Below the pieces are notes generated by a model that was not told where the DNA came from, searched no databases, and saw only the letters and a program-made list of their open reading frames with translations. Source: Candidatus Liptonbacteria bacterium (lineage in GTDB: Bacteria; Patescibacteriota; Minisyncoccia; UBA6257; 2-01-FULL-56-20). From it: DNA of 64,000 nucleotides. A program made the translations under genes and the position numbers. Below are positions 4,829 through 54,858 of the stretch, one piece after another (within the stretch, counting starts at the first letter, position 1; every line of letters begins with the position of its first letter). The DNA is taken from the NCBI GenBank assembly GCA_023244895.1, contig JAHFLL010000001.1, positions 404,741-468,740 of the forward strand, read 5' to 3'.

Positions 4829-4876
4829 AAAATAGAATTTAGTAGTTAGAAGTTAGTAGATAATGCGCGCAATAAC

Positions 4877-10830: not shown

Positions 10831-10861
10831 TTATTTTTTGACTTAGTTTATTATATTGACT

Positions 10862-11060: not shown

Positions 11061-11120
11061 ATTCAGTTGTAGAAACAATTTTATACCATATGCGCCTCTG
11101 GTCAAGTGAGAAATGTCTAT

Positions 11121-11149
11121 TTGACGATATATATCATATATGTTATAAT
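11121..11149 (+). promoter_or_regulatory. Sigma70-like promoter (TTGACG-17-TATAAT)
   Basis: Consensus hexamers with a 17-nt spacer, read directly from the sequence. Confidence 0.45.
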
Positions 11150-11325
11150 CTAGACAGATCTTAGATAAAGGATTGCCTCTTGCGGACAGATCGTGAAGCG
11201 AAATTTGTTTTATGTTTCGTGCTCCATGCTTCATGACGTGCTCGCAGGAGGCAAGGTCAGAATCACTGGCCAGCTAGAGGTGGTCGGGCTAGCTCTAAAC
11301 AACCACCTTCTGCAACAATCCGATA

Positions 11326-11502
11326 ATGTTTCAAGCCATCGGATTAGCGGCAGTGATTGTAGTCTTGGGGATTTTTATGCCGGACGTTTTGAACGCCTTG
11401 CAGAACTTCCTCCTGACTCTCCTGCAGCGGGCCACGTTGGTATTGGATTCGATTCAAACCCCGAATCAATCCGCCGACGTGTTCCGCACCATGCAACGCT
11501 AG
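11326..11502 (+). CDS. Possible 58-aa hydrophobic small ORF (MFQAIGLAAVIVVLGIF...)
   Basis: Below the ORF-track cutoff. Hydrophobic N-terminus with a terminator directly downstream. No clear SD, and the ATG sits in a predicted hairpin loop. Confidence 0.25.
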   Translation: MFQAIGLAAVIVVLGIFMPDVLNALQNFLLTLLQRATLVLDSIQTPNQSADVFRTMQR

Positions 11503-11518
11503 ACCAAGTGTTGCGAGC

Positions 11519-11556
11519 AAAACACCATTCCTCAGGGAATGGTGTTTGTGCGTTTA
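11519..11556 (+). terminator. Intrinsic terminator
   Basis: AAAACACCATTCC-TCAG-GGAATGGTGTTTGTG hairpin plus T-rich tail. Confidence 0.45.
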
Positions 11557-11568
11557 AGCGGAATAAGA

Positions 11569-11901
11569 CTAATCTTTATTTACACTCCCCTGCACTCCCT
11601 CTGTTCTCGCTCTCTTTTGCCGTATTTTCTCCTTCAAAGATTCCAGCTCTCTTTCTAAGTCTTCTAAAAATTCCTTAGCGCCTTCACTGCGCTCTCGGAC
11701 TTCCCCGTCCGGCTCGCGTGGAGTTAGAATCCAGAAAATTATGTAAAACAAACCTCCTAGTCCATGGATTAAAAGTAAGGCCACGAATATCACTCTTACC
11801 AGGGTTGCGTCTATCTCGAAATGCTCCGCGAGTCCTCCGCAGACTCCGGCAATAATATGGTTTTTACGTGAACGATATAGGGTTTTTGGTTCCTTTGGCA
11901 T
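11569..11901 (-). CDS. PspC-domain membrane protein
   Basis: 110 aa with LYRSRKNHIIAGVCGGLAEHF (PspC domain), a TM helix and a helical acidic tail. Confidence 0.65.
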   Translation of the reverse strand: MPKEPKTLYRSRKNHIIAGVCGGLAEHFEIDATLVRVIFVALLLIHGLGGLFYIIFWILTPREPDGEVRERSEGAKEFLEDLERELESLKEKIRQKRARTEGVQGSVNKD

Positions 11902-16163: not shown

Positions 16164-17387
16164 TTATTTTTTAAGCTTTTCTAAAACATCTTTTTTAAAG
16201 TGCTCAAACTGATCATCCTTTATCGCCTGGCGCAAGCGCGCCATAAAATTACCGAAAAAGAAAACGTTATGCATCGTAGCTAATCGGCCAGCCTGCATAT
16301 CTTTTCTCTTGAACATCTGTTTTAACATCGCGCGCGACATATCCGGGTTGGTGCAAACCGGGCACACGCAAAGCTCGTCTAGCGGTCCTTCCGGATCCGG
16401 TAAAACGCTTTTCATAATATCTAAGTGGCCCCTCTCGGTCCAAATCCGGCCATGCCTGGCCTCGCGAGTGGGTATCACGCAGTCAAAGGTGTCTATTCCC
16501 GCTTCCACGCCCGCCAAAATATCCTCCATTTTACCGACCCCAAAAAGATGGCGAGGTTTACTCTCCGGCAAATTTTCTATAGCCCACTCCACCATTTGGG
16601 CTGTTTTGGCCTTAGTACCTCCGTAAGCATCTCCGTAGGTGCTGCCGATAGCGAATCCGTCAAACGGCATTTTGCCAATTACGCTGGCACTCTCTTTCCT
16701 CAAGTCTTCAAAGGCGCCACCCTGCACCACGCCATACATGGCCTGATCCGTAGCGTGGGCCTCAAGCGACCTCTCTGCCCATCTATGAGTCCGCTCCATA
16801 GCTTGCTTGGTATAGGCGTAGTCGTGAGCTGGGGAGGTAGGTTCGTCAAAAGCTACTATAATGTCCGCCCCCAACTGCTCTTGTATCTTCACGGATGTTT
16901 CCGCATCTAAATACATTTCTTCCTCCCCACCAACTACCTCCTCCATCCCATCTTCTCCCGGTAGTACGGGATGGAAATAAACTCCGGCTTCGGTCACGCG
17001 CACTAAACTCTTTTTTTCGGAAAGAGATTTATTTTCATCCGACTTGCTTCCCCCTCGCCGCATATTATTTTCGTAAAGAAAGCCCAGACTGAAAACTTGA
17101 AAGCCGCCGGAGTCGGTCATAATTGGTCCTTTAAAACGCATTACTTCATGCAGGCCCGGATAGTCATTCAGTCCCTCGTCACCCAGATCCCGCCAGAGAT
17201 GGTAGGTGTTTGAGATAATCATTTGGACGTTGGCCTCCTTTAGATCTTCGGGGGTTAGCGTACGCACTTCCGCGTGCGTTCCCACAATAACGTAAGCTGG
17301 AGTTTCTACTAAGCCGTGCGCGGTCTTTAAAATACCCGTGCGAGCATGAGTGTTTTTATCTTTCCGCTCAACGTCAAAGCTGAACAT
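16164..17387 (-). CDS. tgt: Queuine tRNA-ribosyltransferase
   Basis: 407 aa with the TDSGGFQ motif and a C-terminal zinc site (CVCPVC...H). Confidence 0.85.
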   Translation of the reverse strand: MFSFDVERKDKNTHARTGILKTAHGLVETPAYVIVGTHAEVRTLTPEDLKEANVQMIISNTYHLWRDLGDEGLNDYPGLHEVMRFKGPIMTDSGGFQVFSLGFLYENNMRRGGSKSDENKSLSEKKSLVRVTEAGVYFHPVLPGEDGMEEVVGGEEEMYLDAETSVKIQEQLGADIIVAFDEPTSPAHDYAYTKQAMERTHRWAERSLEAHATDQAMYGVVQGGAFEDLRKESASVIGKMPFDGFAIGSTYGDAYGGTKAKTAQMVEWAIENLPESKPRHLFGVGKMEDILAGVEAGIDTFDCVIPTREARHGRIWTERGHLDIMKSVLPDPEGPLDELCVCPVCTNPDMSRAMLKQMFKRKDMQAGRLATMHNVFFFGNFMARLRQAIKDDQFEHFKKDVLEKLKK

Positions 17388-31329: not shown

Positions 31330-31425
31330 TCCCTCTTCCGCTTTCTAACTTCTACTTCCAACCTCTATCTTCTATATTCTATCTACTAACTTCTACCCTC
31401 CACTATACTTGAGTATAGTACCGGG
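31330..31425. repeat. Pyrimidine-rich (CTTCTAC-type) tract plus inverted copy of the 23-bp palindromic motif (left island edge)
   Basis: On the plus strand the tract contains almost no G. It ends with CCACTATACTTGAGTATAGTACC. This is the reverse complement of the GGTACTATACTACGGTATAGCGG motif at 39842 and 41041. Confidence 0.5.
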
Positions 31426-31575
31426 GATGAGAGAGTGGGAGTTGAGAGAATGAGAGCTGGGGGGTGGGAGTTTTGGGGGGCGGGGTGGGGGTGGGGGTGG
31501 GAGGGAGAAAACGGGTTGGAAAACGCGAGGGGGTTATTTTTGAGATGGGATAAGGGTTGGTGGGGTCAGATATTT
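31426..31575 (+). repeat. G-rich, C-poor tract (GGGGGTGGG repeats), G-quadruplex-capable
   Basis: GGGGGGTGGGAGTTTTGGGGGGCGGGGTGGGGGTGGGGGTGGGAGGGAG and nearby sequence. On the minus strand, transcribed from the upstream operon, this reads as C-rich/G-poor, which is rut-site-like. Confidence 0.5.
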
Positions 31576-31648
31576 ATGAACCAGGTTTTCGGAATGCTTG
31601 TAGGCCTCTTCGTTAATAAGGCTACTTCTCGATAAAAAGAAGTTATGA

Positions 31649-32404
31649 CTACCCAGTGGTCTTTTTGAGTTCTGGAACAGTCTCTTCGAGCAACGCCTTG
31701 ATTTGATCTGAGTCAAGTGAGGACAATGCGGAATATCCACCCCTGAGATTAAGCCTGCGCATTATCAGACGTACTTTTGCCTCCTTGCTATTCGAAAATA
31801 ATGTTGGATTTCCCACTACAAATTCAAGCACGGCGAATCGTATGGTCTCATTTCTTCCTTGGGCACCAGGCAATAGATGCGTGGTGTAGTCCAACATGGA
31901 AAATACCTCTCGGGTAAGGACGTAGGGATCTTTTGCGTCCTTCGTCTTCGTGAGAGAAACAACCCACCAGAGCCTTGCGATGTCGTTGTTCATCAACGAT
32001 GCGGGACTCATCGGATCGACAAACCAATGATCGAGAATATATTTACCTCGCTTACTTTCCTTCTGGGCGGATACATCCGTCCTCTTTTTCATATAGTCGA
32101 AAAAGTCCACGTGGGTAAGGTATGTCCAAAAGCGCTCATCCGATGCGTCTTCGGGGCTCAGCGCGCTGTACGCTTCGAAAAGTCGTATCGCGGCCTCCGC
32201 AGAATCCCTACTGCCCCCGCCCGGCGGGTTGGGAAATAATATTTTGGACATGGGAACCTTCAGAGACGACTGCACCGTATCGATATCTTCGACGGAGAAA
32301 CTTTCTCCTAAATATTTTTTTACGCCTTTCCCTGTACGCAAATCATCCTTCATTCTAACGAGGGCTGCGGTCGTAAATATCGGTCTGGTGTTTTTTTCTG
32401 GCAT
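31649..32404 (-). CDS. Hypothetical protein, 4th gene of GHKL-ATPase operon
   Basis: 251 aa. Its start lies 1 nt after the upstream stop. No recognisable family (motifs RFWTYLTHV and ILDHWF). Confidence 0.6.
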   Translation of the reverse strand: MPEKNTRPIFTTAALVRMKDDLRTGKGVKKYLGESFSVEDIDTVQSSLKVPMSKILFPNPPGGGSRDSAEAAIRLFEAYSALSPEDASDERFWTYLTHVDFFDYMKKRTDVSAQKESKRGKYILDHWFVDPMSPASLMNNDIARLWWVVSLTKTKDAKDPYVLTREVFSMLDYTTHLLPGAQGRNETIRFAVLEFVVGNPTLFSNSKEAKVRLIMRRLNLRGGYSALSSLDSDQIKALLEETVPELKKTTG

Positions 32405-32405
32405 A

Positions 32406-33257
32406 TCAGGAGAATGTTATTTTATCGACGATATTGTTGAGATCGTTCAGCGAATTGGTGAGGGGGTAGTCGAATATCGCTTGCACCAGCTCGGGGATAT
32501 TTTCCACCGAGACGCCTATGCGGCGCATTCGATCCTCTTTCATCAGGTCGGTCAGTTTCTTGTGCCACTTCCTGTGGTTGTGCGTGGCACTCCTATCTTC
32601 CGACAAAAACTCGCTCATCACCCAAAGCATAGCCGGATATACGTACAGCGATATGAATACTCGTTTCAAATCTTCGCTCTTTTTAATCTTCTTCATATTT
32701 TCGTAATCCTCTTCGGGTAACTTTATGAGGATAGGGTCCGACCCCAATTCGTACTTAACATCTTTCCCTGCATGCTTGTAGAACATGAAAAATGCGCCTT
32801 CCGATCCCGGCGTCTCCCAATCTTTGGTGACCTCGAAAGAATCGCTGCCGCTGTATCCGAGTATTTCACCCTTATGAACCGTGAAAGTTTGCCCATCGAA
32901 GAAATCTGTGGTGTAGGCATTTTTGTATCGCGGTATATCCTGTTTTGCGATAATCAAACACGTCGCCACAACCGTATCTCTGAGATATTTCGAATCTATC
33001 CTTATTTGCCCCGAACCGTCTCCAGGAAGCTCGAAGCCCATTCGATACATCGTCGAGGAACAGGATACGTCGACAAAGAAAACCGCCTTGCCGTCAGTTA
33101 TTAATTTCTCCATAGCTTCGTTATGGAGGACCTGAGAAACGGTCAAGATCGTCTCTTTGGCGATAACGAGTCCAATATGGGTCTCGAACCTACCGACGAT
33201 TTCGCCTCCGTCCTTGCGTAGTATTGGATGCGGCAACGATACAATGTCGAGTTTCAT
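32406..33257 (-). CDS. Hypothetical protein, 3rd gene of operon (possible PD-(D/E)xK-like motif GD...IDSK)
   Basis: 283 aa. ATGA overlap with the GHKL gene. The weak PD-x9-DxK pattern is speculative. Confidence 0.6.
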   Translation of the reverse strand: MKLDIVSLPHPILRKDGGEIVGRFETHIGLVIAKETILTVSQVLHNEAMEKLITDGKAVFFVDVSCSSTMYRMGFELPGDGSGQIRIDSKYLRDTVVATCLIIAKQDIPRYKNAYTTDFFDGQTFTVHKGEILGYSGSDSFEVTKDWETPGSEGAFFMFYKHAGKDVKYELGSDPILIKLPEEDYENMKKIKKSEDLKRVFISLYVYPAMLWVMSEFLSEDRSATHNHRKWHKKLTDLMKEDRMRRIGVSVENIPELVQAIFDYPLTNSLNDLNNIVDKITFS

Positions 33258-35155
33258 CGAGATTTTTTGATTAGTTCAAAAGCGTTGAGCTTCAGGGAAT
33301 ATTTTCCGGATTCCGAAAATTTTACCTTCAGTCTCCTTGCGCCCATTTTATTCAAAACAAGATCACGTATCTCGTTTGCATTGAAGCTGGGCTGATTTTT
33401 AACCGTCTTATCCGCTATGATCGTTTGCAAAACTAACCTCTCGGAAGAATCGTCGCCACCCGCAACTATTTGAACGATGTCTATTTTCTTTCCTGGCTCT
33501 CCCTTGATCTGAATCTGATGAGTCGGATTACTTTCGGAGTCGGAACCCGCAAATGAAAGGAATGCGATACCCGCTAGCGGTCGCGCGTCGTTATTCTTTG
33601 TTTTCGATTTTTTCTTTCCCTTGTTTCTCTTGTCGGCAACTGGAATATATACATCCCCACCTTCCTTCTCGGCGCGTTCTTTGATGCTCAGGATCTTCTT
33701 TTTTACTTTCAGATCCAAATTCCGCATTTCCTCGACGGTCACCTCGTCGCCGTATTCTTTTTGGGTGTATTCTTTTTCTCCGCCCTGCGCTCCAGAACCT
33801 TCGTCGGTATCCATTGCAATAAAATCCTCCAACCCCTCGATAGAAAGATATCGTTCTTCCCGAGAGGTGCTCAGTTTTTGCAACTCCCTTTTGATAAAAT
33901 TCTCCATTTCCAGATACGCCAACTTGGCCTTTTCGCGATTCTCTTGCGTTTTGGCGTTCTCCCATTTCCATTCGTTGTGTTCCTGGTTCTCCATCTCCCT
34001 GAGGAGCGCATTACCATTTTCGTTGTCGCAAATAAAAACCGCGGCATACCGATTCATCGAATTCTTCTTGATGCAGTCCACGACCATGCCGGGTTTCCGG
34101 ATCAAAGCCACCCGGTTGGGATACCCGTCAGCCAGTAAAAGATGCAAGCGAACCTTGCCGAGGTGATCCAATTCGTCCTCTATCGGAGCATCCTTACGAT
34201 AGGCGTAGTAGAGAGGTAGCGGGTTCGGCACATCCGTGTTGCCCCACTCGAAAGGAGCTTTGCTGAAATATTTATGGAGGAGGTGTTCGACGGTATTTTG
34301 ATTGATGGTTTCGTTTTCCTGCACCTTAACGGTAAGCTTGCCCGTAATGATGGGCAGCCAGAAATAGCGGAGGATCGATTGAACCAATTCTGAGGCCCAA
34401 TCGTCCTCACCGATGAAATCGGGGATTAAAAAGTCCGTGCCAGGTCTTATTCGCTTAAACACGCTCGGAAAAAGCTTGGTGAAATTAGTTGGGATGAGAT
34501 CGCGGTCGTGAATCGGCTTTTGATCACCCACGCCGTAGGTACCGTTATTTTGTTTTCGCTTCCCGTCTTCTTCGAACGTGGTAACGATGGTTTTCCCAGC
34601 GAAGGTATAAGAGTTGGCCTCGTCGATACTGGAAATGAAAAGGGAAAGAAAGCCGGACGAGACATAGTAAGCGCCTTTTCCCAGACCGAACGATCCACCG
34701 CTCCCAGACTGTTTATTGCTGAAACCGACGGATTCCGCAAACCGGAACCAGTTCTCTTTTGTCATGCCGACAGTATTGAAATCACTGATCCTGAGAACTT
34801 TGACCGTGGTATTTTTCGAGATTTTACTCGCTCCTTTCTCGAATTCGACTGCCGTATCAATCGCTCCTTTCTCCCTCAAATAAACGGCGCACGCCGAAAG
34901 TATCTTCGCGAGCCGCTCGGCTCCAGGCACGCTTTTGGCGGGCATCGTAACAACGCTGAATTCAGCTTCAACGGGCTTCCCTGAACTCGAATCGTGCGCG
35001 TCCATTATATTTTGGAGGGCCTCTCGGGCGATATAGTAGGAAGGATTACCGCGAAATTCAACCGTGGGCCCAGCATTCGGGCCATCGGCCATACCCCCCC
35101 CGAGATCCCCGAAAATCCATTCAGGCTTATTTGAATCTGTTGAAGTCTTGGGCAT
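33254..35155 (-). CDS. GHKL-superfamily ATPase (Hsp90/MORC/MutL-like Bergerat fold), 2nd gene of operon
   Basis: 633 aa with N-box EALQNIMDA, G1 box DFNTVGMTKE (Hsp90-like DxGxGMTK) and G2 GSGGSFGLGKG. It also has a Lys-rich low-complexity linker and a ~100-aa C-terminal domain. Confidence 0.7.
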   Translation of the reverse strand: MPKTSTDSNKPEWIFGDLGGGMADGPNAGPTVEFRGNPSYYIAREALQNIMDAHDSSSGKPVEAEFSVVTMPAKSVPGAERLAKILSACAVYLREKGAIDTAVEFEKGASKISKNTTVKVLRISDFNTVGMTKENWFRFAESVGFSNKQSGSGGSFGLGKGAYYVSSGFLSLFISSIDEANSYTFAGKTIVTTFEEDGKRKQNNGTYGVGDQKPIHDRDLIPTNFTKLFPSVFKRIRPGTDFLIPDFIGEDDWASELVQSILRYFWLPIITGKLTVKVQENETINQNTVEHLLHKYFSKAPFEWGNTDVPNPLPLYYAYRKDAPIEDELDHLGKVRLHLLLADGYPNRVALIRKPGMVVDCIKKNSMNRYAAVFICDNENGNALLREMENQEHNEWKWENAKTQENREKAKLAYLEMENFIKRELQKLSTSREERYLSIEGLEDFIAMDTDEGSGAQGGEKEYTQKEYGDEVTVEEMRNLDLKVKKKILSIKERAEKEGGDVYIPVADKRNKGKKKSKTKNNDARPLAGIAFLSFAGSDSESNPTHQIQIKGEPGKKIDIVQIVAGGDDSSERLVLQTIIADKTVKNQPSFNANEIRDLVLNKMGARRLKVKFSESGKYSLKLNAFELIKKSR

Positions 35156-35157
35156 TT

Positions 35158-35388
35158 TTATAGTTCAAACTCCTTCTCTTGTTTTTCTTCACCCCGAAAA
35201 CGAGCTTCCGCCTTCGCAAGCGCGTCTTTCATCGCCCCGAAAATCTTCCTTAATTGGTCTGGGGTGTAGTCGTAAAGCCCACGATTATGGAGATTGGAAA
35301 CGATCCGGATATCGTCGAGGACTTTCCTGACCCTTTTCTCCGCCAGCCGCTTGAACCGTTCCGCCTTTTGTTCGTTATTTTTTGACAT
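35158..35388 (-). CDS. Small helical basic protein, 1st gene of operon (possible DNA-binding/regulator)
   Basis: 76 aa. Its stop lies 2 nt before the GHKL ATG. A TTGACA-17-TATACT promoter sits upstream. Confidence 0.45.
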   Translation of the reverse strand: MSKNNEQKAERFKRLAEKRVRKVLDDIRIVSNLHNRGLYDYTPDQLRKIFGAMKDALAKAEARFRGEEKQEKEFEL

Positions 35389-35412
35389 AGTATTTTAGGA
35401 AGTATTTCCTGA

Positions 35413-35441
35413 AGTATATTCTATAGTATTTTCTATGTCAA
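35413..35441 (-). promoter_or_regulatory. Sigma70-like promoter for the 4-gene operon (TTGACA-17-TATACT on minus strand)
   Basis: Read directly from the sequence. It lies just downstream of a small GC hairpin that terminates vsr. Confidence 0.4.
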
Positions 35442-35446
35442 GTCTC

Positions 35447-35869
35447 TTATCTTCGGGCCTCTTCGGGGCCTAAACACCTCTTCATTTTGGTCTCTACGCG
35501 ATCCGGATGCTTCTTTATGACCGATCCCCAGAATCGGAGCACCTTATAACCGCGTTTGCGTAGTTCCCTGATCTGACGGCTGTCCCTTTTTATATTCGCA
35601 GCAATTTTTGATTTCCAAAAATCGGGAATTCGTGCGCCCCATTTTTTAAGCCCTCTTCCATGCCAAAAATCGCCATCCGCGAAGATGGCGATTTTATTTT
35701 TCACAAAGACAATGTCGGGTTTTCCCGGGAGACTGGCTACGTTTTTTCTGTAGCGTTCAATTTTCCAAAAAGGCCTGACTATTCTGCCCAATAGTTTTTC
35801 GATGTCGGTATTTTTTGTACCGACTTTCTTCATCAATACGCTACGCGCTTCTTTGGTTAATTTATCCAT
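35447..35869 (-). CDS. vsr: Very-short-patch-repair endonuclease
   Basis: Motif FADGDFWHGR (compare the FVDGCFWHGH Vsr signature) with conserved Asp/His. The start is probably internal MDKLT. Confidence 0.75.
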   Translation of the reverse strand: MDKLTKEARSVLMKKVGTKNTDIEKLLGRIVRPFWKIERYRKNVASLPGKPDIVFVKNKIAIFADGDFWHGRGLKKWGARIPDFWKSKIAANIKRDSRQIRELRKRGYKVLRFWGSVIKKHPDRVETKMKRCLGPEEARR

Positions 35870-36389
35870 GCTCCTCGACGCGTGGATAAATAATGCGTGC
35901 CTCTGCGACAAGAGCTTTAGTAACTGTTATATTCCATCCCCGCATAGTCTTGTGCCACTTCTTCAGTCTGAAAAATTGTTCCCATGTGATCTCTAAAATT
36001 TTCTTTGGCTGCAGATTCTGATCTATTAAAACAATAACGACGTACTCGAATTTCTTTTCCGAGGGATGCTCGATTTCGGGATCACCGAGTCCGTAAAAAA
36101 CACTCGTCAAACTGTTCGGCTCGGTAATTGTCTTTATGCTGTACCTGTCTCCCTTCCGACTCAATGCATCAACATTCTGGGTTCCTTCCGGAGCTGCTTG
36201 GAGCTTAGGCAACCCGGGAATTTTGTTATATGTTTCGATGGCCAAAAACTCGCCACGTTCCCCGGTGATGTTCTTGGTCCGTATTAACCCTCGCTTTTTC
36301 AAAAGAGTAATCGCAAACGCGTAGACGCTCCACACGACGTCATCACTGGCAGCCTCTATCTTCTCAAATATCTCAAATTCCTTTCCCAT
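35862..36389 (-). CDS. Hypothetical protein between dcm and vsr (R-M associated)
   Basis: 175 aa, translationally coupled to its neighbours. No recognised family. Confidence 0.45.
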   Translation of the reverse strand: MGKEFEIFEKIEAASDDVVWSVYAFAITLLKKRGLIRTKNITGERGEFLAIETYNKIPGLPKLQAAPEGTQNVDALSRKGDRYSIKTITEPNSLTSVFYGLGDPEIEHPSEKKFEYVVIVLIDQNLQPKKILEITWEQFFRLKKWHKTMRGWNITVTKALVAEARIIYPRVEEHG

Positions 36390-36397
36390 GAGTAAAT

Positions 36398-37384
36398 CTA
36401 CAGAAATTTTATTATTTCACGGCCAATTTCCCGTATCACGTTTATCGCCACGCTATTTCCGAGCTGCTTGAGCATCTGCGTATGTGTAACCGTTGTTGGA
36501 AAATCGAAATCCGCCGGAAATCCCATCATCGTTTTCATCTCACCCACAGTCAAGACATGTTTTTCCCCTCCAACAATATATGTATCCCAACTCCTCTTGT
36601 CCACAAACCATTCTCCGTTTCTTTTTTTGTATACTGGCGACCCGCGCCCACCAACTCGAATGGTTCTCCCTATCTTGTTCGGCCATTTCTTATCTTTAAA
36701 GAATTTACATAAAGTCGTGCCTCCTGGACTAGTTGGCTTTGGGAATTTAAATTCCTTGGCGCCAGGCGCTCCTTTTTTAAAGGCCACTAAATAAAATCTG
36801 GGTCGAGCGGTCGGCAGACCGAAATCGCTGGCATTCAGAAAGTTCCAGGAATCGTCTCGCTCCTCGTTTACGTAATATCCAGCCCTGTCCAGTTTTTCCA
36901 AGATAATTTGGAACGTATGCTTATTGTCGTGATTAACAATGTTCCTCACGTTCTCCAGAAAAATAACCTTCGGCTGCTTGGCCAAAATTATTCTCTCTAT
37001 GTCACCGAATAGGGTGCCTCTGTCATCATCAAATCCCCGTTTTTGTCCGATACGACTGAACGGTTGGCATGGGAAACCAGCACACAATACATCGAATTTT
37101 GGTATAACCCTTTTTATATTTTTATCCCAAATTGTTTTTGATTGCCCAGTATCAGTAAGGGTTATGTCCTTTATGCTTTTCCAAAAATAGGGTTCGCGCT
37201 TCTTGCTTTTAAACAATTCGGGGTTGGTCTTACGAAAATTATGCTCGTATGTCTTCCGTGCATTCTCGTCGAATTCATTTACGAACACGCATTCACCGCC
37301 GAGCTCCTGTAGCGCGAGATGGAATCCACCGATTCCAGCGAAAAGGTCAATAAATGTAAACTTTGGCCTCCTTTTCTTTTTCAT
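36398..37384 (-). CDS. dcm: DNA (cytosine-5)-methyltransferase
   Basis: Motif I FIDLFAGIGG, motif IV GFPCQPFS, ENV, and the C-terminal target-recognition and motif IX/X pattern. Confidence 0.85.
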   Translation of the reverse strand: MKKKRRPKFTFIDLFAGIGGFHLALQELGGECVFVNEFDENARKTYEHNFRKTNPELFKSKKREPYFWKSIKDITLTDTGQSKTIWDKNIKRVIPKFDVLCAGFPCQPFSRIGQKRGFDDDRGTLFGDIERIILAKQPKVIFLENVRNIVNHDNKHTFQIILEKLDRAGYYVNEERDDSWNFLNASDFGLPTARPRFYLVAFKKGAPGAKEFKFPKPTSPGGTTLCKFFKDKKWPNKIGRTIRVGGRGSPVYKKRNGEWFVDKRSWDTYIVGGEKHVLTVGEMKTMMGFPADFDFPTTVTHTQMLKQLGNSVAINVIREIGREIIKFL

Positions 37385-37464
37385 TATTTATACAATCAGA
37401 ATAGCATAATTTCCCTCCATTTTCACAGATTTATATACCCCAGCGATGCGCCAGAGCGAATGGT

Positions 37465-38475
37465 TTATCTTGCTTTATGGGATAGCTCAAATAACTTGTC
37501 CTTTATGCTTTCAAACTGGGCTCTAGTAATTGGATATGGTGTACCCCCGCCATGATTGAAAGAGTTTGAAAATGGCTCGCTGAATTCTCCCTGTTTCCCA
37601 AATTTCAGCTCAATATCCTTCTTGGACTTTTTCTTTATCTCAAAATCAACAAAGTGAGGCCAGTGCCGGTTATTTATTTCCAGGGTCCTTCTCTGATCTT
37701 CAAAAAATGTCCCCCTGTGGTTGTCGAGCGCCATATAATACGGTTCGACAATACTGCAAATGTAGTATCTGTAAATAGTTATCTCCGTCTTAGGGTTTTT
37801 GGGCATAGCCATACTATTCCCGGCCTTACCGAATATAAAAAGTATCTTGTCGCCTTTCTGCATATCCAGAATATGCGGCAATGCTTTTGCATGCTGTCGG
37901 AATGCCCAGAACGGCTTAGAGGGCTTACTCTTGAGCATCCTATCAAAGTTCTTCACCGCAGGGCCATTGGCTCCTCCTTTTAAGAATACGACCCAATATT
38001 GACTCTTGCTTGAAAGATTCTTGCTCTCGGCCTGATAAATTAGAGACTCCCGCGAGAGCCGAGAAATATTTTCCGCGACCCAATCGGCAAAATCATCATG
38101 GTCAATGGCTACAACGTCTATCCCCTCATATGTCTTTAAATCAGTCTCCCCAAGGACAACAACAAAACCATCTTTTTCTTTTATATATCTTTTCTGATTG
38201 TCTTTCTTAAAATCGGTTAAATGCCATTTGACCTCTACCGGTATGCCGTTCTGCCGTTTTTTAAAAAAGATCTCCAGGTCGGCTCGATAACGAGCTTCTG
38301 TCTTGGACCCTTCGGGTACAATAAGATTTATCTGATCTTTTTGGAGTCTTTCCGGAAGCAATTTTCTCCTCTGGCCAGAATCACCAAAATAATATCTTTC
38401 GAAAAGATAACGGTGGATCAGCTTTTCGTTAAAGGCATTTCGGTTGATCTTTTTGAAGATATCCAGTCCGCTCAT
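37465..38475 (-). CDS. Putative type II restriction endonuclease (N-terminal PD-(D/E)xK: RADLEIF...PVEVKW)
   Basis: 336 aa, located immediately upstream of dcm on the same strand. It has a D-x12-EVK motif. This is an inference. Confidence 0.5.
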   Translation of the reverse strand: MSGLDIFKKINRNAFNEKLIHRYLFERYYFGDSGQRRKLLPERLQKDQINLIVPEGSKTEARYRADLEIFFKKRQNGIPVEVKWHLTDFKKDNQKRYIKEKDGFVVVLGETDLKTYEGIDVVAIDHDDFADWVAENISRLSRESLIYQAESKNLSSKSQYWVVFLKGGANGPAVKNFDRMLKSKPSKPFWAFRQHAKALPHILDMQKGDKILFIFGKAGNSMAMPKNPKTEITIYRYYICSIVEPYYMALDNHRGTFFEDQRRTLEINNRHWPHFVDFEIKKKSKKDIELKFGKQGEFSEPFSNSFNHGGGTPYPITRAQFESIKDKLFELSHKAR

Positions 38476-38610
38476 TAAAATCTCTTATGTTTTTTATGAC
38501 CTACCCCTTCTTCCAATCCCTGATGGTGAATCCGCCGGGGGGAAGTTTTGGGCTCTTATTTACCTTAAATAATATGCCCCTCTTTTGGCTTTAGCAAGAA
38601 TAAAATTCAA

Positions 38611-38694
38611 GGCAGTAAGTAGATAGTAGCAAGTAGTAGGTAGAAGGCGGAGTATATAAAAAAGAACCAGCCCCGGACGCGCGTCGCGCCGGGG
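38611..38694. repeat. Composite repeat copy 1: C-depleted GTAG/TAGAAG tract + 48-bp terminator module (GCGGAGTATATAA..CCCCGGACGCGCGTCGCGCCGGGG)
   Basis: 47 of 48 bp match 39974..40021. On the minus strand this is a hairpin plus T-run terminating the PNP gene. Confidence 0.55.
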
Positions 38695-38726
38695 CCGGAA
38701 TAGAATCCGTCTGACTTCTCCGCCAC

Positions 38727-39614
38727 TTACGCCGCTTCGCTCCGGCGGTAGAGCTCGAAGAACCTGAGGAAGATCTTGGCGACACGCCGGCGGACCGGCG
38801 GGCTCTTCAAGACCCTCACGACCTCCTCGTGATTGGTCGCGTTTGTGCCATCCTTCTTGGTTGTATTGGACACGATGGAAACGGCGAGCGTGCGCAGACC
38901 GCGATTGGTCGCGACGATCACTTCGGGCGCGGTAGACATGCCCATCGCGTCCCCGCCCAGAATCCGAATCGCACGGACCTCCGCGGGGGTCTCGTAGGTC
39001 CGTCCGGTCTGGACGAAGAGCACGCCCCTGTGGACACGCCGAGACTCTCGCACGATTGCGGCCGCGCGGTGGAACATACTGCGCAGCTTCAGGTCGTACG
39101 TGCCGACCTTGGGGTACATGGGCTGGAAGTACCAGTTGCTCCCAAAGTCCAAATGCGGTCCGAGAAGCGGGTTGGGCATCGCGAGAGCGATGTGGTCCGT
39201 GACCACCATCAGATCTCCGACCTTGTAGGACATGTTCGCCGCGCCGACTGCGTTGGTCGACATGTAGATCTGGACACCGAGCTCCGCCATCACCTGGACG
39301 GCGAGGGTAACCCACCACATCGCCCGCGGGTCGGGAGCGGCGTTGTAGTAGTGCTCCCGGCCGGACAAGGCGAAAACGGGCACGCCAGCGATGGTCCCGT
39401 AGATCAGCTCGCCCTTGTGCCCCGGAGCGCTCACGCCCGGGAAACCGGGAATCAGCCGATACGGGATCACAACCTCCTTCACCATCTGCTCGGCGAGGTC
39501 GTCCATCCCCGAGCCTAGCGTGAGCGAAATCTTGGGCATGGGGCCATTCACCCTGCTCCGGATGTAGGCTGCCGCCGCCCGAACCTTGGCCACGTAGACT
39601 TTCGGCGAGATCAT
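38727..39614 (-). CDS. Purine nucleoside phosphorylase (PunA/MTAP family), GC-rich foreign cassette
   Basis: 295 aa with GSGMDDLAE, SGREHYY and MGMSTAPEVIVA...NHEEV. A strong SD (GGGAGG) lies upstream. The gene is markedly GC-richer than the genome. Confidence 0.8.
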   Translation of the reverse strand: MISPKVYVAKVRAAAAYIRSRVNGPMPKISLTLGSGMDDLAEQMVKEVVIPYRLIPGFPGVSAPGHKGELIYGTIAGVPVFALSGREHYYNAAPDPRAMWWVTLAVQVMAELGVQIYMSTNAVGAANMSYKVGDLMVVTDHIALAMPNPLLGPHLDFGSNWYFQPMYPKVGTYDLKLRSMFHRAAAIVRESRRVHRGVLFVQTGRTYETPAEVRAIRILGGDAMGMSTAPEVIVATNRGLRTLAVSIVSNTTKKDGTNATNHEEVVRVLKSPPVRRRVAKIFLRFFELYRRSEAA

Positions 39615-39837
39615 CTCTCAGTCCCTCCCTGTTATGCCTCACGGAATAATATCAAAACCGTTTCGGATAGCTCCTCGCGGCTCATCACATCATTATGCAG
39701 TCAGGTATAAAAATCAATGTAGTAAGCGAAAGTAGAGGCTAGTAGCTAGAAGGTAGTAGGTAGCGAGCAAAATGAACCTAAACGGGAAAACACTGCTCAT
39801 CTCTCACTAACCCTATCTCCCCCAACTCACACCCCCG

Positions 39838-40021
39838 TGGTGGGTACTATACTACGGTATAGCGGAGGATAGTAGGTAGAATATATAAGGTAGAAGTTGG
39901 AAGATGGGAAGTGGTAGGTAAAAAGCGAGGGGTAGAAGTTAGAAGATAGAAGTTGGAAGGTAGAAAGTAGAATGCGGAGTATATAAGAAAGAACCAGCCC
40001 CGGACGCGCGTCGCGCCGGGG
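39838..40021. repeat. Composite repeat copy 2: 23-bp palindromic motif + C-depleted purine tract + 48-bp terminator module
   Basis: GGTACTATACTACGGTATAGCGG, then about 100 nt with almost no C (GGTAGAAGTTAGAAGATAGAAG...), then the terminator module for the lipoprotein gene. Confidence 0.55.
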
Positions 40022-40041
40022 CGGTCAATCTCATCATCCTA

Positions 40042-40746
40042 CTAGTCATAGAAGCGCGTCACCGGGGAGTAGTGCTCCCGGATGAAGGCGTTGAAGCAGG
40101 GACCTTCCTTCTGGCCACAGGCAAGCCAGCCTCTATACATAGTGGCACCGACCGGGTCCAGGTTGCGGCCCGCCCTCACTAGAGCAGAGACGGTATAGCG
40201 GCAGGTCCTGTCCCATGCGGTGACCTCGGAGGCGATCAGCGCCTCCTTACCGTCCACGTTGTCACAGCCACTCGCAAGATGCTCCAGCTCGTGGAGAAGA
40301 CCGATCACGATCGAGACTTCGAAGGTCTGCGGCGTGACCTTTCCGCTTCGATAGAACTGTAGCTGGGCCGGTACGAAGATCCGGAGCACGGGATTGCCAC
40401 CCCGAGCATCGCAACCGGCCAAGACGTCTCTGGAGCGGTTATTGAAGGACGTGCTGGCCTCGATGGCGAACACCTTGCCGTAGCGCTCAGCGCTCCGCCT
40501 GGAGAGCTCCAGATAACGGTTGTTGATGTCCGAAACCGAATACCTGGCCCGGAGCACCTCCTCCATCACGGTCCGGTTGAAGTGGGAGTCCCAGAACGCG
40601 TGGAGCTCCTCGTCCGAGAACTTGCGCTCCACCCTCTCCGCCACGGTGGGGGTGGGTTCATTCTTCTTGTCTATGGGGCAACCAAGAACCAGAAGAATGG
40701 TCGTCAGAAACAGGATGCGCGCCGTTCTTCCGCGTCGCATGGACAC
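40042..40746 (-). CDS. Lipoprotein with HExxH zinc-metallopeptidase motif, GC-rich cassette
   Basis: Signal peptide with lipobox LVLGC, HELEH motif, and an SD (AGGGGAGG) before a GTG/ATG start. Confidence 0.55.
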   Translation of the reverse strand: MSMRRGRTARILFLTTILLVLGCPIDKKNEPTPTVAERVERKFSDEELHAFWDSHFNRTVMEEVLRARYSVSDINNRYLELSRRSAERYGKVFAIEASTSFNNRSRDVLAGCDARGGNPVLRIFVPAQLQFYRSGKVTPQTFEVSIVIGLLHELEHLASGCDNVDGKEALIASEVTAWDRTCRYTVSALVRAGRNLDPVGATMYRGWLACGQKEGPCFNAFIREHYSPVTRFYD

Positions 40747-40895
40747 AGGTTGCCTCCCCTATTGTTTTGCCGTCATTGCGGCGATGGTAAACGAACCGAC
40801 CATATAATACAATTTTTCATGTAAAACACAAGATAACCCTCTTTCATTAATTATCTAGCCCCTCACGTCCCCAGCTTGACTAGGACATAGCACCA

Positions 40896-41064
40896 GGTAA
40901 CAAGTAGTGGCTAGTAATTAGTATTGAATAACGGTGAGTTAGAAGACGGTGGTTGGTAGTTAGAACGTGGAAAGTGGAACGTAGAACTACTGCCACTACT
41001 ACAATCATAATTCCGCTTACTCATCCATCAACCCCCACAGTGGGCACTATACTACGGTATAGTT
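40896..41064. repeat. Third copy of purine-rich tract + 23-bp palindromic motif (GTGGGCACTATACTACGGTATAG)
   Basis: Same orientation as the copy at 39842, and upstream of the plus-strand gene 41153. Confidence 0.45.
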
Positions 41065-41152
41065 ATCCACAGATAGGCATTGACGCACAGACTGGACGGC
41101 TATAGTTTTAAATCAGCCCCCGAAACGTTAACCTCTTTCAAGGAGCAGTGTC

Positions 41153-41392
41153 ATGGGTAGCAACAACACGCCACGGTACGAGGAAGACACTCGGCAGGTC
41201 TCCTCGGCCACCAGTGCGGCGGGCATGGCAGCGGCAGTCATGATTGCCGGGCCGTTCGCAGCGCTGTTCGTCGATCCGAACGACAAGTGGGAGCACACCA
41301 TCACCGATACCCAGACTGGTAACCAGGTTGTGGGTACCGGGAGCACCCCGCAAGAAGCTCGCGACGAAGCCCTGGGCAACATGCGTCGCTAA
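41153..41392 (+). CDS. Small hypothetical protein (79 aa), GC-rich
   Basis: AAGGAG sits 7 nt upstream of the ATG. No recognised family. Confidence 0.45.
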   Translation: MGSNNTPRYEEDTRQVSSATSAAGMAAAVMIAGPFAALFVDPNDKWEHTITDTQTGNQVVGTGSTPQEARDEALGNMRR

Positions 41393-49722: not shown

Positions 49723-51531
49723 CTATATTTTACCTAGCTTCCTAGCCAACGCCTCAGCTTCACTAAGCAGTCTTTCTATCTCATTTAAACCCTCGTGCCA
49801 GAAGTCCGCGCGAGTAATATCTACGCCCAAATCCGCGAAGATATCCTGGGGAGACTTAGAAATACCCGCAGAAAGAAACCTTTTCACGGCTTCAATCCTG
49901 GTCTTGTCTTTACGCACTTGAGCCTGCAAAGATTTTGATATCAGGAGCCCGGTCGCATAGGAATAAACATAAAAGAAGCTGCGAATATGGCTCCAGTAGA
50001 CCCACCAATTTTCGGAACCGGGAGATTGCTCCACCGCCTCGCCCATATAGTCTGCCATATGTTTCTGGAAAATCTGCCCGATCTCAATATGGGATAAATA
50101 TCCTTTTTCTCGAAAAGTTTTGTGAAGTTCTTGCTCAAAACGGTAACAGGCCGCCTGGCGGAAGATACTGGAGACATCATCATTCAACTTAGTGAGCATC
50201 ATGGCCAGGCGCAACTCCTCATCCGCTTCTTTCTCTATACGTTCCAGCACGAAGTCTTCCATAAAAGTACTAGCCACTTCCGCGCTGGCGGTAGAAGTCC
50301 CGAAATAGACTCCTTTCTGCTCCGGGCGCATCAGTTCGTTGTTAATCGCGTGCCCCATCTCATGCGCTAAGGTCATTACGTCGTTTAGGCGGTCAGTGTG
50401 ATTTAAAAGCACATATGTCGGCTGGCTGACTAGAAGATGGGAGCAAAAGGCGCCATTGTGCTTGCCCTTCCCCGGGAAAACATCTATCTGACCATTCTCT
50501 AGTAACCGTTCTAATATTTCGGGAAAGGCCGGATCCAGTCCGCTGAAGACATCTTTAACCAACCCCACCGCCTCCCCAAAAGTATATTTTTTATCCGCCT
50601 CGCCATAAGGCACGTTGCGTTCGTGGTATGCGAGCTTAGGCACACCCATTAATTTCGCCCGTAAGGCGTAATAATCACGGGAGATTTGAAAATGGTTCCG
50701 AATGGTTTCTATCGCCACATCTACCACCACGGTAGAGATGTCGTCGTGCACGTGACGCAGAGTATCCGGGCGCTCCACTCCGCGTAATTCATCATCGCTC
50801 TTCTTATTATCTAAGACCGCGTTTATCTCCGCCTCCGCCACATCCAGATGTTTTACAAAAATATTATTCAACGCCTGCGCCGCGGAGTCGCGTACCGGTT
50901 TTTCAATATTGTTCGCGAGGCTGGTTAGCTCCGAAAAATTTGCCTTCTTTCTGTTTCCCTCTTTGTCTACTAAAACCTCAGCTTCTTCTTTGGAAATCAA
51001 GCCAGACACCATCCTGACCCACTGGCCGTAAGCGGGCGAGGATTTGAAGTCCATGATTCTCTCTTCCGGTTCGGAAAGCAAATATTTGCCTTCCGCAAAC
51101 AATCTTTCCAAAAAATGCCTAAAATATGAAAGCTCCGACGCCGTGAGCATGCGCGCTTGCGCGTCCGGCTCTATCTTGGAAATCCTTAGCTCAAAAAAGC
51201 GCACCTCATCCGCGATTTTGCGCGCGAATTCTTCCGCCTGGTTTAGTTTCGCCTTAAGCTCCGAAGAATTCTGGTCCTGCTCCGCCCTTAACCAAAAATA
51301 ATAAGCTTCATCCCCGCCTTGTCCGCAAGAATTTTGCCAAGCTTCATATTCCGTAAGCGCTTGCGCTAGCGCCTTCGGGTCAGAGAGGTAGTCTTCGCGA
51401 TTTTTCCAAGCCTGCACAAATCCAGCCGTTTTGGCCTGTATCTCTTTACGCTTAGCTTCTTTCGCCGGGTCATCATCCGACACAAGGAGCGGGCTCAGGT
51501 CCCAGGTGGTTTTTATGTCTTTTTCTGTCAT
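49723..51531 (-). CDS. pepF: Oligoendopeptidase F (M3B)
   Basis: 602 aa with HEMGHAINNE (HExxH) and the downstream Glu. Confidence 0.8.
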   Translation of the reverse strand: MTEKDIKTTWDLSPLLVSDDDPAKEAKRKEIQAKTAGFVQAWKNREDYLSDPKALAQALTEYEAWQNSCGQGGDEAYYFWLRAEQDQNSSELKAKLNQAEEFARKIADEVRFFELRISKIEPDAQARMLTASELSYFRHFLERLFAEGKYLLSEPEERIMDFKSSPAYGQWVRMVSGLISKEEAEVLVDKEGNRKKANFSELTSLANNIEKPVRDSAAQALNNIFVKHLDVAEAEINAVLDNKKSDDELRGVERPDTLRHVHDDISTVVVDVAIETIRNHFQISRDYYALRAKLMGVPKLAYHERNVPYGEADKKYTFGEAVGLVKDVFSGLDPAFPEILERLLENGQIDVFPGKGKHNGAFCSHLLVSQPTYVLLNHTDRLNDVMTLAHEMGHAINNELMRPEQKGVYFGTSTASAEVASTFMEDFVLERIEKEADEELRLAMMLTKLNDDVSSIFRQAACYRFEQELHKTFREKGYLSHIEIGQIFQKHMADYMGEAVEQSPGSENWWVYWSHIRSFFYVYSYATGLLISKSLQAQVRKDKTRIEAVKRFLSAGISKSPQDIFADLGVDITRADFWHEGLNEIERLLSEAEALARKLGKI

Positions 51532-51565
51532 CTTTATTTTATATTTACCTACTACATACTACTTT

Positions 51566-51736
51566 CTACTTACTGTTCAACACTTTCTGTTCTACTCCAC
51601 ACCAGGGACAAAACCAGGCATTGCGCTTGGGCGCGTCAGCTATGGACCACCATTTATTACACTTCCCGCAACGAAAATGAGAAATCTGCTCCAATGAAAT
51701 TCTGCCCTGTAGTTTCTTCTTGTCTTCTGTTTTCAT
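51566..51736 (-). CDS. Possible small zinc-ribbon protein (CGKCNKWW...CPWCG)
   Basis: Internal Met start. The 3' end runs into the purine-rich tract upstream of pepF. Weak call. Confidence 0.25.
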   Translation of the reverse strand: MKTEDKKKLQGRISLEQISHFRCGKCNKWWSIADAPKRNAWFCPWCGVEQKVLNSK

Positions 51737-52723: not shown

Positions 52724-53404
52724 CTAATTAGTTGAGTACAACGGCACCACTTCCAAGTCGCCCTTTTGGGGAGCGCGCACAATATCTATGACCTTGCCGA
52801 AAATTTGAAAGTTGCGATTTACGATTATCGGCTTATATTGCGGGTCGGAAGAAACCGGGTGCAAGATGATGGCGTTATTCGCGAACTGAATCTTCTTTAT
52901 AACCGCGAAACCGTCAATTATTGCCACCACTAAATCTTCCTCATAGATGGCCTGAGTCATCTCCACTAAGACATAGTCGTTCTCGTTTATGCCCGCGTCT
53001 TTCATAGAATCGCCCACCGCGCGAATACCAACCACATTATCTTTGCGCCGCCCTTGGAGCATTTCGCTCGCCACGCATAAAAACTCATCAAAAGAACTTT
53101 GCGCGAAGACGTTCACGTTATCGCAACCCGCGGAAGCGATAACCGGAATTTCTACTTCTTCCTTGGGCTTATCGTTTTCCAACTCCAGCACACGAATACC
53201 ACGCCGCTCGTAGCGGGAACGCTGGATTAGGCCCTTCTTTTCCAAAACCATTAGATATTGAGAAATACTGCGCGGAGAAGACAACTTCAAGGAACGCGCC
53301 ATTTCTTGAATGGTGGGCGCCTCGCCGTGCCTATCCGCATAGCTTTTTAGGACCTCGTAAAACTTTCTTTGTTTTTCCGTCAGCGTTGAGATTATTTTGT
53401 TCAT
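52724..53404 (-). CDS. lexA: LexA repressor
   Basis: 226 aa with an N-terminal wHTH, an S24 domain carrying GDSM (the Ser of the dyad) and the downstream Lys. Confidence 0.85.
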   Translation of the reverse strand: MNKIISTLTEKQRKFYEVLKSYADRHGEAPTIQEMARSLKLSSPRSISQYLMVLEKKGLIQRSRYERRGIRVLELENDKPKEEVEIPVIASAGCDNVNVFAQSSFDEFLCVASEMLQGRRKDNVVGIRAVGDSMKDAGINENDYVLVEMTQAIYEEDLVVAIIDGFAVIKKIQFANNAIILHPVSSDPQYKPIIVNRNFQIFGKVIDIVRAPQKGDLEVVPLYSTN

Positions 53405-54565: not shown

Positions 54566-54858
54566 ATGGATGAGCCAATTATAAATCCAATTCACAAAAA
54601 ATATCCACAGACCGGGAAGTTTGACAGCTTTCTAAAACGGGCAGAATATTAACCTCGCACATTAGAAATATTTTAGGAATCTGGGGAAGCGGGTGTAAAT
54701 CCCGCACAGTGCCGCTACGGTGATCTCGATAATCTTATCGGGAAAGTCCGACTACCAGTCCTAGAACCTTTTGTGTTCCTCGAGCAAGGAACAAACTGAT
54801 TTTGTCCAATCAGGATCCCCTTGCTCTAGCGGGATTTTTTAGTTCCGCGCAGAACAAA

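Follow-up and report, generated by a model that had tools for sequence, protein, structure and literature searches.

A palindrome of TrpR/HisR operator type and its putative YerC-family repressor in a Patescibacteria genome

A short palindrome that occurs in three copies was analyzed in a 64-kb stretch of a metagenome-assembled genome from the candidate phyla radiation (CPR; Patescibacteria), positions 404,741 to 468,740 of contig JAHFLL010000001.1 (hereafter the window; its DNA in the ENA assembly ERZ27279977 is L001). This palindrome is probably a lineage-specific operator of a YerC/YecD (HisR)-type repressor of the TrpR family, P0002, which is encoded elsewhere on the same chromosome. The assignment is based on the identity of the motif in the window and at the yerC locus, the linkage of the motif to yerC in seven lineages, its geometry within the yerC promoter, its fit to the published HisR consensus, and the homology between the window copies and a module at yerC. 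Binding by YerC, the sign of the regulation, the ligand and the effect of the window copies are predicted here from sequence. Few transcription-factor regulons have been described for Patescibacteria, which carry few regulators, and our literature search, which covered a limited set of papers, found no description of this regulon in the phylum. Here, an operator of TrpR/HisR type can be read from the sequence, with a layout of yerC, operator and small open reading frame (ORF) in the seven lineages examined. For annotation, the lesson would be that such a palindrome marks a host regulatory site and not the boundary of a mobile element.

Palindrome copies in the window and at yerC

The exact core CTATACT-N3-GTATAG (CTATACTNNNGTATAG) has three matches in the 64 kb, at 31403-31418, 39847-39862 and 41047-41062, whereas 0.01 are expected (100 shuffles). 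No further convincing copy was found in the window when two or three mismatches were allowed. The first copy, w1, spans 31400-31422 on the plus strand, with the core CTATACTTGAGTATAG at 31403-31418 and the 20-bp frame cACTATA-CTTGAG-TATAGTa. The second, w2, spans 39842-39865 on the minus strand (core 39847-39862, CTATACTACGGTATAG on the plus strand; 20-bp frame tACTATA-CTACGG-TATAGcg), and the third, w3, spans 41041-41064, also on the minus strand (core 41047-41062; 20-bp frame cACTATA-CTACGG-TATAGTt). The original prediction had placed three copies at these positions with w1 in the opposite orientation, and both statements are borne out by the exact matches and by a one-sided extension, GG(T/C)AC, which is common to the copies and sets w1 opposite to w2 and w3. 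All ten half-site bases are intact in w1, w2, w3 and in a copy from a related genome (L188), while the inner spacer and the flanks have diverged. The central bases are TTGA in w1 versus TACG in w2 and w3, and the latter two copies share 88% identity over 32 nt (repeat D10). The w2 copy is located 228 nt upstream of the start of a gene for a purine/uridine nucleoside phosphorylase (PNP), on the minus strand. The w3 copy is flanked by two divergent genes, a 79-aa gene on the plus strand, 89 nt away, and a 234-aa gene on the minus strand.

The lead to the regulator was a TrpR-like gene (PF01371) located near the palindrome in four CPR-like contigs (L127, L142, L015 and L081). A protein search with the L127 protein retrieved hundreds of 'YerC/YecD family TrpR-related' proteins from Patescibacteria. 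P0002 (116 aa; PF01371) shares 81% identity with the L127 protein and is encoded outside the window; its best matches in the PDB are the TrpR-like structures 3FRW (E = 4e-17), 3G1C and 3KOR. The longest contig encoding P0002 is 840,672 bp, which is also the length of the longest contig for the PNP, RarA and 234-aa proteins of the window, and P0002 occurs in the same sequencing run (SRR14366791) as the contig with the window PNP. Therefore, the window's own genome encodes P0002. An operator for a regulator encoded within the gene island of the window had been proposed earlier; the operator part of this proposal agrees with the 20-bp TrpR/HisR frame and with the position over the yerC -10 box, but the regulator is encoded outside the window. 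The 76-aa protein at 35158-35388, which had been put forward as a binding candidate, has no match to any DNA-binding family.

The P0002 locus (L180/L181) contains two copies of CTATACTATAGTATAG, one on each side of yerC. At site 1 (L180, 308-323), CTATACTATAGTATAG is located one base before the start codon and lies over the -10 element of a TTGACA-17-TACTAT promoter match. At site 2 (L180, 758-773), it is located 83 nt after the stop codon, over the -10 element of a TTGACT-16-TACTAT match. The yerC gene in L127 has the same two-site layout, and a TTGACA-17-TAC(T/C)AT match has its -10 box covered by a site in L180 and L127 alike. An alignment of the three window copies with their flanks, the check suggested at the outset, showed that the match of w1 (plus), w2 (minus) and w3 (minus) to yerC site 2 extends into the flanks to the left and right of the palindrome. 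The common pattern consists of (T)ATCC(A/T)CC(G/A), the palindrome, 9-10 nt, GGGGGTG, and then a purine-rich, C-poor tract. For example, the minus strand at w2 reads TATCCTCCG-palindrome-N10-GGGGGTG, and yerC site 2 of L180 reads TATCCACCG-palindrome-N9-GGGGGTG. The window copies have a pyrimidine-rich period-7 tract at the position where yerC site 2 has its TTGACT -35 box. The motif is not tied to the island as had been supposed, since non-accessory DNA carries it as well, in this genome and in other CPR genomes.

The transcript predicted from yerC site 2 has a purine-rich leader of ~180 nt, followed by a conserved peptide of 26-43 aa (...HHNQLFREEIGCG...). In L180 this small ORF is located at 958-1050 (MTKQNINFNTSAGHHNQLFREEIGCGFYFS), and it was also identified in L127, L190-192, L193-194 and L185-187, with the motif HH..LF.E.IGCG kept in five lineages. 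Synonymous third-position changes between lineages show that the ORF is coding. Its end is overlapped by an internal inverted repeat (CTCTTC...GAAGAG) with a T-run. A small RNA downstream of yerC was considered and rejected, the region being the small ORF, and a search of the yerC-downstream region against Rfam gave no match. The small ORF is followed by a conserved gene of 229-337 aa with unknown function and then, in L180/L181 and L185-L187, by a convergent prfA gene. A DnaA-box sequence also recurs near these sites. A perfect 9-mer, TTATCCACA, abuts w3 (41063-41071), with ~0.5 chance matches expected in the window alone. The spacer of the site-2 promoter of yerC contains the near-identical TTATCCACC in L180 (about 746-754) and in L190, and TTATCCACA is found in L185 (about 10645), ~40 nt upstream of the yerC site-2 promoter. 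This recurrence beside the operator is curious.

Conservation across yerC lineages and relation to known operators

Seven independent CPR yerC lineages were compared (L180, L127, L190, L196, L193, L182 and L185), among them the loci fetched for five further homologues. All seven carry the 16-bp palindrome CT[AT]TA-N6-TA[AT]AG at yerC, and in all seven one copy lies 2-34 nt before the gene, downstream of a TTGACA box, with one or two copies 22-111 nt after it. The half-sites are CTATAC/GTATAG in L180, L127 and L190, CTTTAC/GTAAAG in L196 and in the upstream site of L193, CTTTAC/CTAAAG in L182, and CTTTAG/CTAAAG in L185; the changes between lineages are always symmetrical. Three sites surround a yerC-like gene in L142, and one site lies near that of L015. 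The predicted recognition helix starts with S-P-R in proteins with CTATA sites and mostly with S-S-T or S-S-R in those with CTTTA sites, which suggests that the helix start may track the half-site type. The inner 4 bp are free to vary among 19 sites of the CTATA type, and the flanking Y-R and the C and G beside the half-sites are kept, a pattern expected for the site of a dimeric helix-turn-helix protein. The PNP_UDP_1 gene of L196/L197 directly follows yerC and its operator, in parallel with the position of w2 upstream of the window PNP.

The YerC protein of Bacillus subtilis is HisR, a histidine repressor of the TrpR family (Ashniev et al., 2022; PMC9413887). HisR operators follow a common consensus, the 20-bp palindrome cacTTTAnnnnnnTAAAgtg; autoregulation is frequent, and Patescibacteria are not among the phyla listed with HisR orthologues (PMC9413887). 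The L185 site, CCACTTTAGTGCACTAAAGTGG, is an exact instance of this consensus, and L185, L182 and L196 carry the published consensus form (CTTTA-N6-TAAAG type). The window motif, cACTATA-N6-TATAGTa, differs from the HisR consensus by one base (T to A) in each half-site. HisR operators and the window sites share the 20-bp frame, the 5-bp half-sites, the 6-bp spacer and the c-a-c / g-t-g flanks; in addition, a regulator of the same family (PF01371) is encoded in the window's genome, and sites are present at the regulator's own promoter. The differences are that the half-site in the window's lineage is CTATA and not CTTTA, and that the window copies are located on a repeated module with C-free flanks and without a -35 box. 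No genes for histidine biosynthesis or uptake were found beside any copy, the neighbors being genes for PNP, the lipoprotein, DUF1905, the small ORF, prfA, NUDIX and adenylate-kinase-like proteins. As a histidine regulon was not encountered, the regulator should not be called a histidine repressor, although the sites would work like HisR sites. The operator of Escherichia coli TrpR (TGTACTAGTTAACTAGTACA) is likewise palindromic, its dimeric helix-turn-helix repressor belongs to the same Pfam family and is autoregulated, and the outer flavor GTAC-TA / TA-GTAC is shared; the half-site sequence and spacing of this operator differ, and the CPR site fits the HisR frame and not the TrpR frame (PMC9413887).

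Motif scans were also performed on other genomes and on metagenomes. A scan for GGYACTATACTNNNGTATAG with one genome per species retrieved 41 loci, mostly scattered across phyla at about chance level; four of them are from Patescibacteria, where the palindrome extends further, a modest enrichment that is unconvincing by itself. A strict palindrome scan of metagenomes gave no matches, and a looser one gave three classes, namely organelle-like repeats, RcnR/CsoR-linked loci and a few CPR-like contigs, the first two classes making up most of the matches. In the RcnR/CsoR-linked class, which comprises at least 14 non-CPR loci from Acinetobacter, Gemmatimonadota and high-GC soil bacteria (L143, L105, L149, L126, L121, L098, L134, L164, L027, L160, L107, L009, L031 and L079), the same 20-mer (e.g., CTATACTGGGGTATAGTACC) is located 10-40 nt upstream of PF02583 genes, as an apparent autoregulatory operator of an unrelated repressor family. 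Type-1 operators of RcnR, CsoR and FrmR are AT-rich inverted repeats around a G/C tract, such as TACT-G6-N-AGTA. The identical 20-mer directly upstream of PF02583 genes in many non-CPR genomes is shared with the CPR sites; the CPR copies, in contrast, are not centered on a G tract and are not linked to a DUF156 gene. The likeness of the two 20-mers is to be read as convergent similarity of AT-rich palindromes.

Proposed function and alternative explanations

In the mechanism that we propose, a YerC dimer would bind the half-sites CTATA and TATAG, 6 bp apart. At site 1, YerC would cover the -10 box and the transcription start of a strong sigma-70-type promoter, leading to autorepression, probably of a leaderless yerC mRNA. 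At site 2, it would control the downstream small-ORF transcript with its long purine-rich, C-poor leader. The three window copies would be paralogues of this site-2 'operator plus purine-rich leader' module, reused as junction DNA downstream of a gene for an ABC-F ATPase, where they probably tether YerC near the PNP, 234-aa/79-aa and DUF1905 cassettes. The simplest assumption, given that each of w1-w3 retains its ten half-site bases, is that they still bind YerC. PNP is the best-supported candidate target, because the L196/L197 PNP gene directly follows yerC and the operator. The link to PNP, and not to histidine genes, suggests that the family has been given a new job in nucleoside-salvaging organisms. 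The operator itself is of an ordinary and known kind; the new parts are the apparent rewiring to nucleoside salvage, the conserved small ORF and the C-free period-7 flanks.

Several observations weigh against this reading. Where the yerC sites have their -35 box, the window copies have none, and a consistent -35 box of a sigma-70 promoter was not found at them; w2 carries a weak promoter-like match (CTCACA-16-TATACT), and a minus-strand match, TTGATG-16-TATGAT, is located at 41031-41004, 16 nt downstream of w3. The distances from the window copies to the nearest start codons are 89-333 nt, which is unusual for repressor sites. One side of w1 is occupied by the 3' end of a convergent gene, and a copy in the CPR contig L017 lies between two convergent genes with no promoter to control. 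The count of three copies covers 64 kb of an 840-kb genome and is not a genome-wide number. The correlation between recognition helix and half-site involves seven proteins, one of which, P0009, has mixed sites. Since the identical 20-mer is found at RcnR/CsoR genes, the sequence alone does not name the binding protein. Finally, copies away from yerC often have extra complementary GC-rich flanks, forming a perfect palindrome of 44 nt in L015 and extending to 38 nt in L011 and 28 nt in L188, with a complementary GTGGG/CCCAC pair outside the core of w3; a 20-bp protein site does not account for these flanks.

The comparison with the related genome L188, which shares 86-88% nucleotide identity with the window in ABC-F and PNP, bears on several of the alternatives. 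Its module, CCCCTACTATACCATAGTATAGTAGGGGG at 8948-9022, is 85.5% identical to w1 over 76 nt and is placed elsewhere than in the window, upstream of a 191-aa gene that precedes PNP. A second pyrimidine-rich tract in L188 (12147-12185) ends in ...CTTCTACCCCTACT followed directly by GCGG, and is broken inside the left half-site (12180); this truncated tract is the only hint of rearrangement at the palindrome itself. The three points at which the homology between window and L188 breaks off (42196, 39717 and 38723) coincide with gene ends, and none of them falls at 39847-39862 or 41047-41062. The copies had been described as delimiting segments of an island, and in view of these breakpoints this description holds only loosely. 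The two loci have only RarA/ABC-F, PNP and short modules in common. With so little shared, the locus downstream of ABC-F is hypervariable, and the module is junction DNA that can be reused within it.

The main rival makes the same claim of ancestry. It holds that the window copies are descendants of YerC operators that travel inertly on a repeated spacer module shuffled by homologous recombination, with no regulatory role. The missing -35 box, the distant start codons, the different placement of the module in L188 together with the broken copy there, a terminator hairpin that is 100% identical in two copies of the module, and the break of the assembler's contig (L002) at the repeated module all fit this explanation. 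We nevertheless consider it unlikely, given that the ten half-site bases are intact in the three window copies and in L188 while spacer and flanks have diverged, and that the pairing of palindrome and purine-rich tract is kept in distant lineages despite the changed sequence of the tract. A retained operator function could be carried one step further: the 'operator plus C-free leader' would be a portable junction that stitches horizontally acquired cassettes, here those for defence, secreted proteins and nucleoside salvage, into the regulon of a single repressor that senses a small molecule, with the modules supplying homology for shuffling. We regard this extension as speculative and rather improbable. 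If it is true, the nearly C-free transcribed tracts, in some of which UAG recurs every 7 nt, would have their own function and might be unstructured leaders or arrays for RNA-binding proteins.

Site-specific recombination sites (att, dif or integron attC) for the insertion, excision or inversion of cassettes, which the original prediction had also considered, are very unlikely. It is true that the copies are found between cassettes, in a locus that is not the same in the two related genomes, that one of the three has the opposite orientation, that the truncated L188 copy ends inside the left half-site, and that inverted arms around a 4-6 bp center are formally compatible with a tyrosine-recombinase core. 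Integrase, recombinase, resolvase and transposase families, however, were found in none of the window ORFs of at least 110 aa, and no recombinase or transposase family was found among the called genes of L188. The breakpoints of homology miss the palindromes, the differing centers (TTGA and TACG) would block exchange between w1 and w2 or w3, and fixed promoter positions around yerC in seven lineages are unexpected for recombination sites. There is no tRNA in the window, so that tRNA-linked integration is unsupported. An inverted similarity of ~100 bp between the w1 and w2 regions had been taken as compatible with degraded terminal inverted repeats. The similarity is real but shorter, 65 nt at 75% (arms 31358-31422 and 39843-39907) in low-complexity DNA, and it appears in several shifted registers because of the 7-nt repeats. 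Terminal inverted repeats do not agree with a module that also occurs in direct orientation (w2 and w3), at yerC and singly in L188, and no transposase was found. Repetitive extragenic palindromes (REP), bacterial interspersed mosaic elements (BIME) and attC sites likewise consist of short, imperfect palindromes that recur, in either orientation, in the spaces between genes or cassettes, but the window has three copies in 64 kb with an invariant stem, a free loop and, at yerC, fixed promoter positions. A RAYT transposase, an integron integrase and the R'/R'' GTTRRRY core were not found in the window.

A function by base pairing would make the palindrome a structural hairpin of RNA or of single-stranded DNA, namely a terminator, a cruciform, or an element of processing or stability. 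It would explain the extra complementary, non-conserved flanks in L015, L011, L188 and w3, the hairpin z-score of -5.1 at w3 and the copy between convergent genes in L017. The core stem, on the other hand, has only 6-7 AT-rich pairs (about -6 kcal/mol), the z-score of w2 on the plus strand is -0.2, and there is no T-run after the palindrome, while real terminators are present nearby. The stem sequence is invariant, whereas a structural element would tolerate compensatory changes, and the yerC-proximal copies are located in untranscribed promoter DNA or at the transcription start. This explanation is therefore judged highly improbable; no RNA family of Rfam was identified at the window copies. 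The same 20-mer upstream of PF02583 genes would suggest operators for a sensor of metals or aldehydes from the CsoR/RcnR/FrmR (DUF156) family, with its gene at another place in the genome. We consider such a sensor extremely unlikely, as tblastn detected no DUF156 homologue in the window or in the CPR loci compared, a search that did not extend to the remainder of the genome. In addition, a G tract is missing from the center of the CPR copies, and in CPR the motif is linked to yerC, with which its half-sites co-vary.

A few other likenesses were tried and discarded. Written as TACTAT-N8-ATAGTA, the core takes the frame of the SOS box of E. coli, and two matches lie beside DNA-repair genes; the LexA/SOS reading was rejected because the lexA gene of the window has no copy nearby and because the literature gives the LexA site of Patescibacteria as a direct repeat. 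This canonical LexA gene (LexA_DNA_bind and Peptidase_S24) is located at 52724-53404 on the minus strand. T7-like and N4-like phage promoters, the pMV158-type nick site (TACTACG), FRT, dif, CIRCE and the NrdR box fail on spacing or on the variable loop bases.

Gene setting, C-free tracts and other occurrences

The genes in the window are mostly encoded on the minus strand. From 45.3 kb downward, the minus-strand order is RarA, the ABC-F ATPase, two small Cys-rich ORFs, the 79-aa gene on the opposite strand (41153-41392, plus; no function assigned), w3, the 234-aa gene, a terminator, a period-7 tract, w2, PNP, a defence island, w1 and the DUF1905 gene. The 234-aa gene (40042-40746, minus) encodes a predicted lipoprotein with a HELEH motif and no family match, and forms the cassette between w3 and w2. 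The PNP gene (38727-39614, minus; PF01048), the candidate target of w2, is conserved in L188. The defence island between w1 and PNP (31649-38475, minus) encodes PDC-M33 A, B and C, a Dcm-type methyltransferase, Vsr, a protein similar to methyl-directed restriction enzymes, and unknown proteins of 76 and 336 aa. Its three consecutive genes at 31649-35155 match the PADLOC candidate system PDC-M33 A, B and C (E = 1e-90, 1e-44 and 8e-36, respectively). The only Rfam match in the window, unrelated to the palindromes, is an adenosylcobalamin (AdoCbl) riboswitch at 54658-54801 on the plus strand (51.2 bits; the gathering threshold is 50). The gene that directly follows it encodes 625 aa, with DUF4430 and squalene-hopene-cyclase-like repeats.

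The C-depleted purine tracts reported beside the copies are real, but they are two-sided at w1 and w2, and at w3 a C-poor tract is present only on the minus-strand side, with ordinary sequence on the plus side from 41063. On the plus strand, C-less runs are located at 31423-31456, 31482-31511, 31527-31566, 39864-39925 and 39927-39974, and G-less runs at 31341-31410 (70 nt), left of w1, and 39796-39836 (41 nt), left of w2. At w1 and w2, the C-poor strand is the strand that reads away from the palindrome on both sides. The flanks are of two types, 'GGGGGTG/GAGAG' on one side and a period-7 array (TAGAAGN) on the other. Tandem Repeats Finder detected period-7 arrays at 31343-31395, 38617-38645, 39740-39763, 39933-39965 and 40961-40987. 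Left of w1, the G-less pyrimidine-rich tract at 31341-31400 (plus) contains 7.7 units of period 7 (TTCTAAC), and its minus strand forms a C-less TAGAAG-type tract toward the DUF1905 gene. To the right, the C-depleted, G-rich tract at 31423-31566 (plus) contains GAGAG-type repeats and G runs at 31470-31511; these G runs, GGGGGGCGGGGTGGGGGTGGGGGTGGGAGGGAG, fit the usual G-quadruplex pattern. The minus strand of the tract at 39796-39836 (plus coordinates), left of w2, reads GGGGGTGTGAGTTGGGGGAGATAGGG... and represents the purine-rich side of the module, and the C-less tract on the right (39864-39974, plus) includes the TAGAAGT array at 39933-39965. Between w3 and the 234-aa gene, a C-poor, TAG-rich tract at 40895-40990 (plus) includes the array at 40961-40987.

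An 87-nt junction module is present in two copies on the minus strand. Copy 1 (38609-38695) consists of a TAG tract, GCGGAGTATATAA and the terminator hairpin after PNP, and copy 2 (39936-40022) provides the terminator after the 234-aa gene. The two copies are 83% identical overall (D3), the hairpin being the invariable part (D8). Period-7, TAG-rich, C-free tracts (TAGAAGN/TAGTAGN) were also found outside the island, at 4826-4865 and 51528-51574, after a stop codon or directly before a start codon, and therefore they represent a general feature of the intergenic DNA in this genome. The UAG that recurs every 7 nt in the tracts presumably recalls the arrays bound by HutP-type RNA-binding proteins, a tentative likeness. 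A 56-nt G-less run at 16904-16959 (plus strand; C-less on the coding strand), inside the gene for queuine tRNA-ribosyltransferase, has a composition like that of the intergenic tracts.

Two further groups of matches came from the scans. In the organelle-like family (L072, L075, L083, L087 and ~20 more loci), the flanks are constant and a 4-nt loop is flipped, CTATACTAAGGTATAG versus CTATACCTTAGTATAG, which is a signature of hairpin-mediated small inversions. Scans of viral sequences gave matches at chance level except for one phage contig, L005 (identical to L070; IMG/VR, 38,958 bp). In its region 9840-11680, small early genes are directly preceded by CTATACTWWAG(G/T)ATAG, which is present in at least six copies, one of them accompanied by a G-run tract and ACAGATA-type low-complexity repeats.

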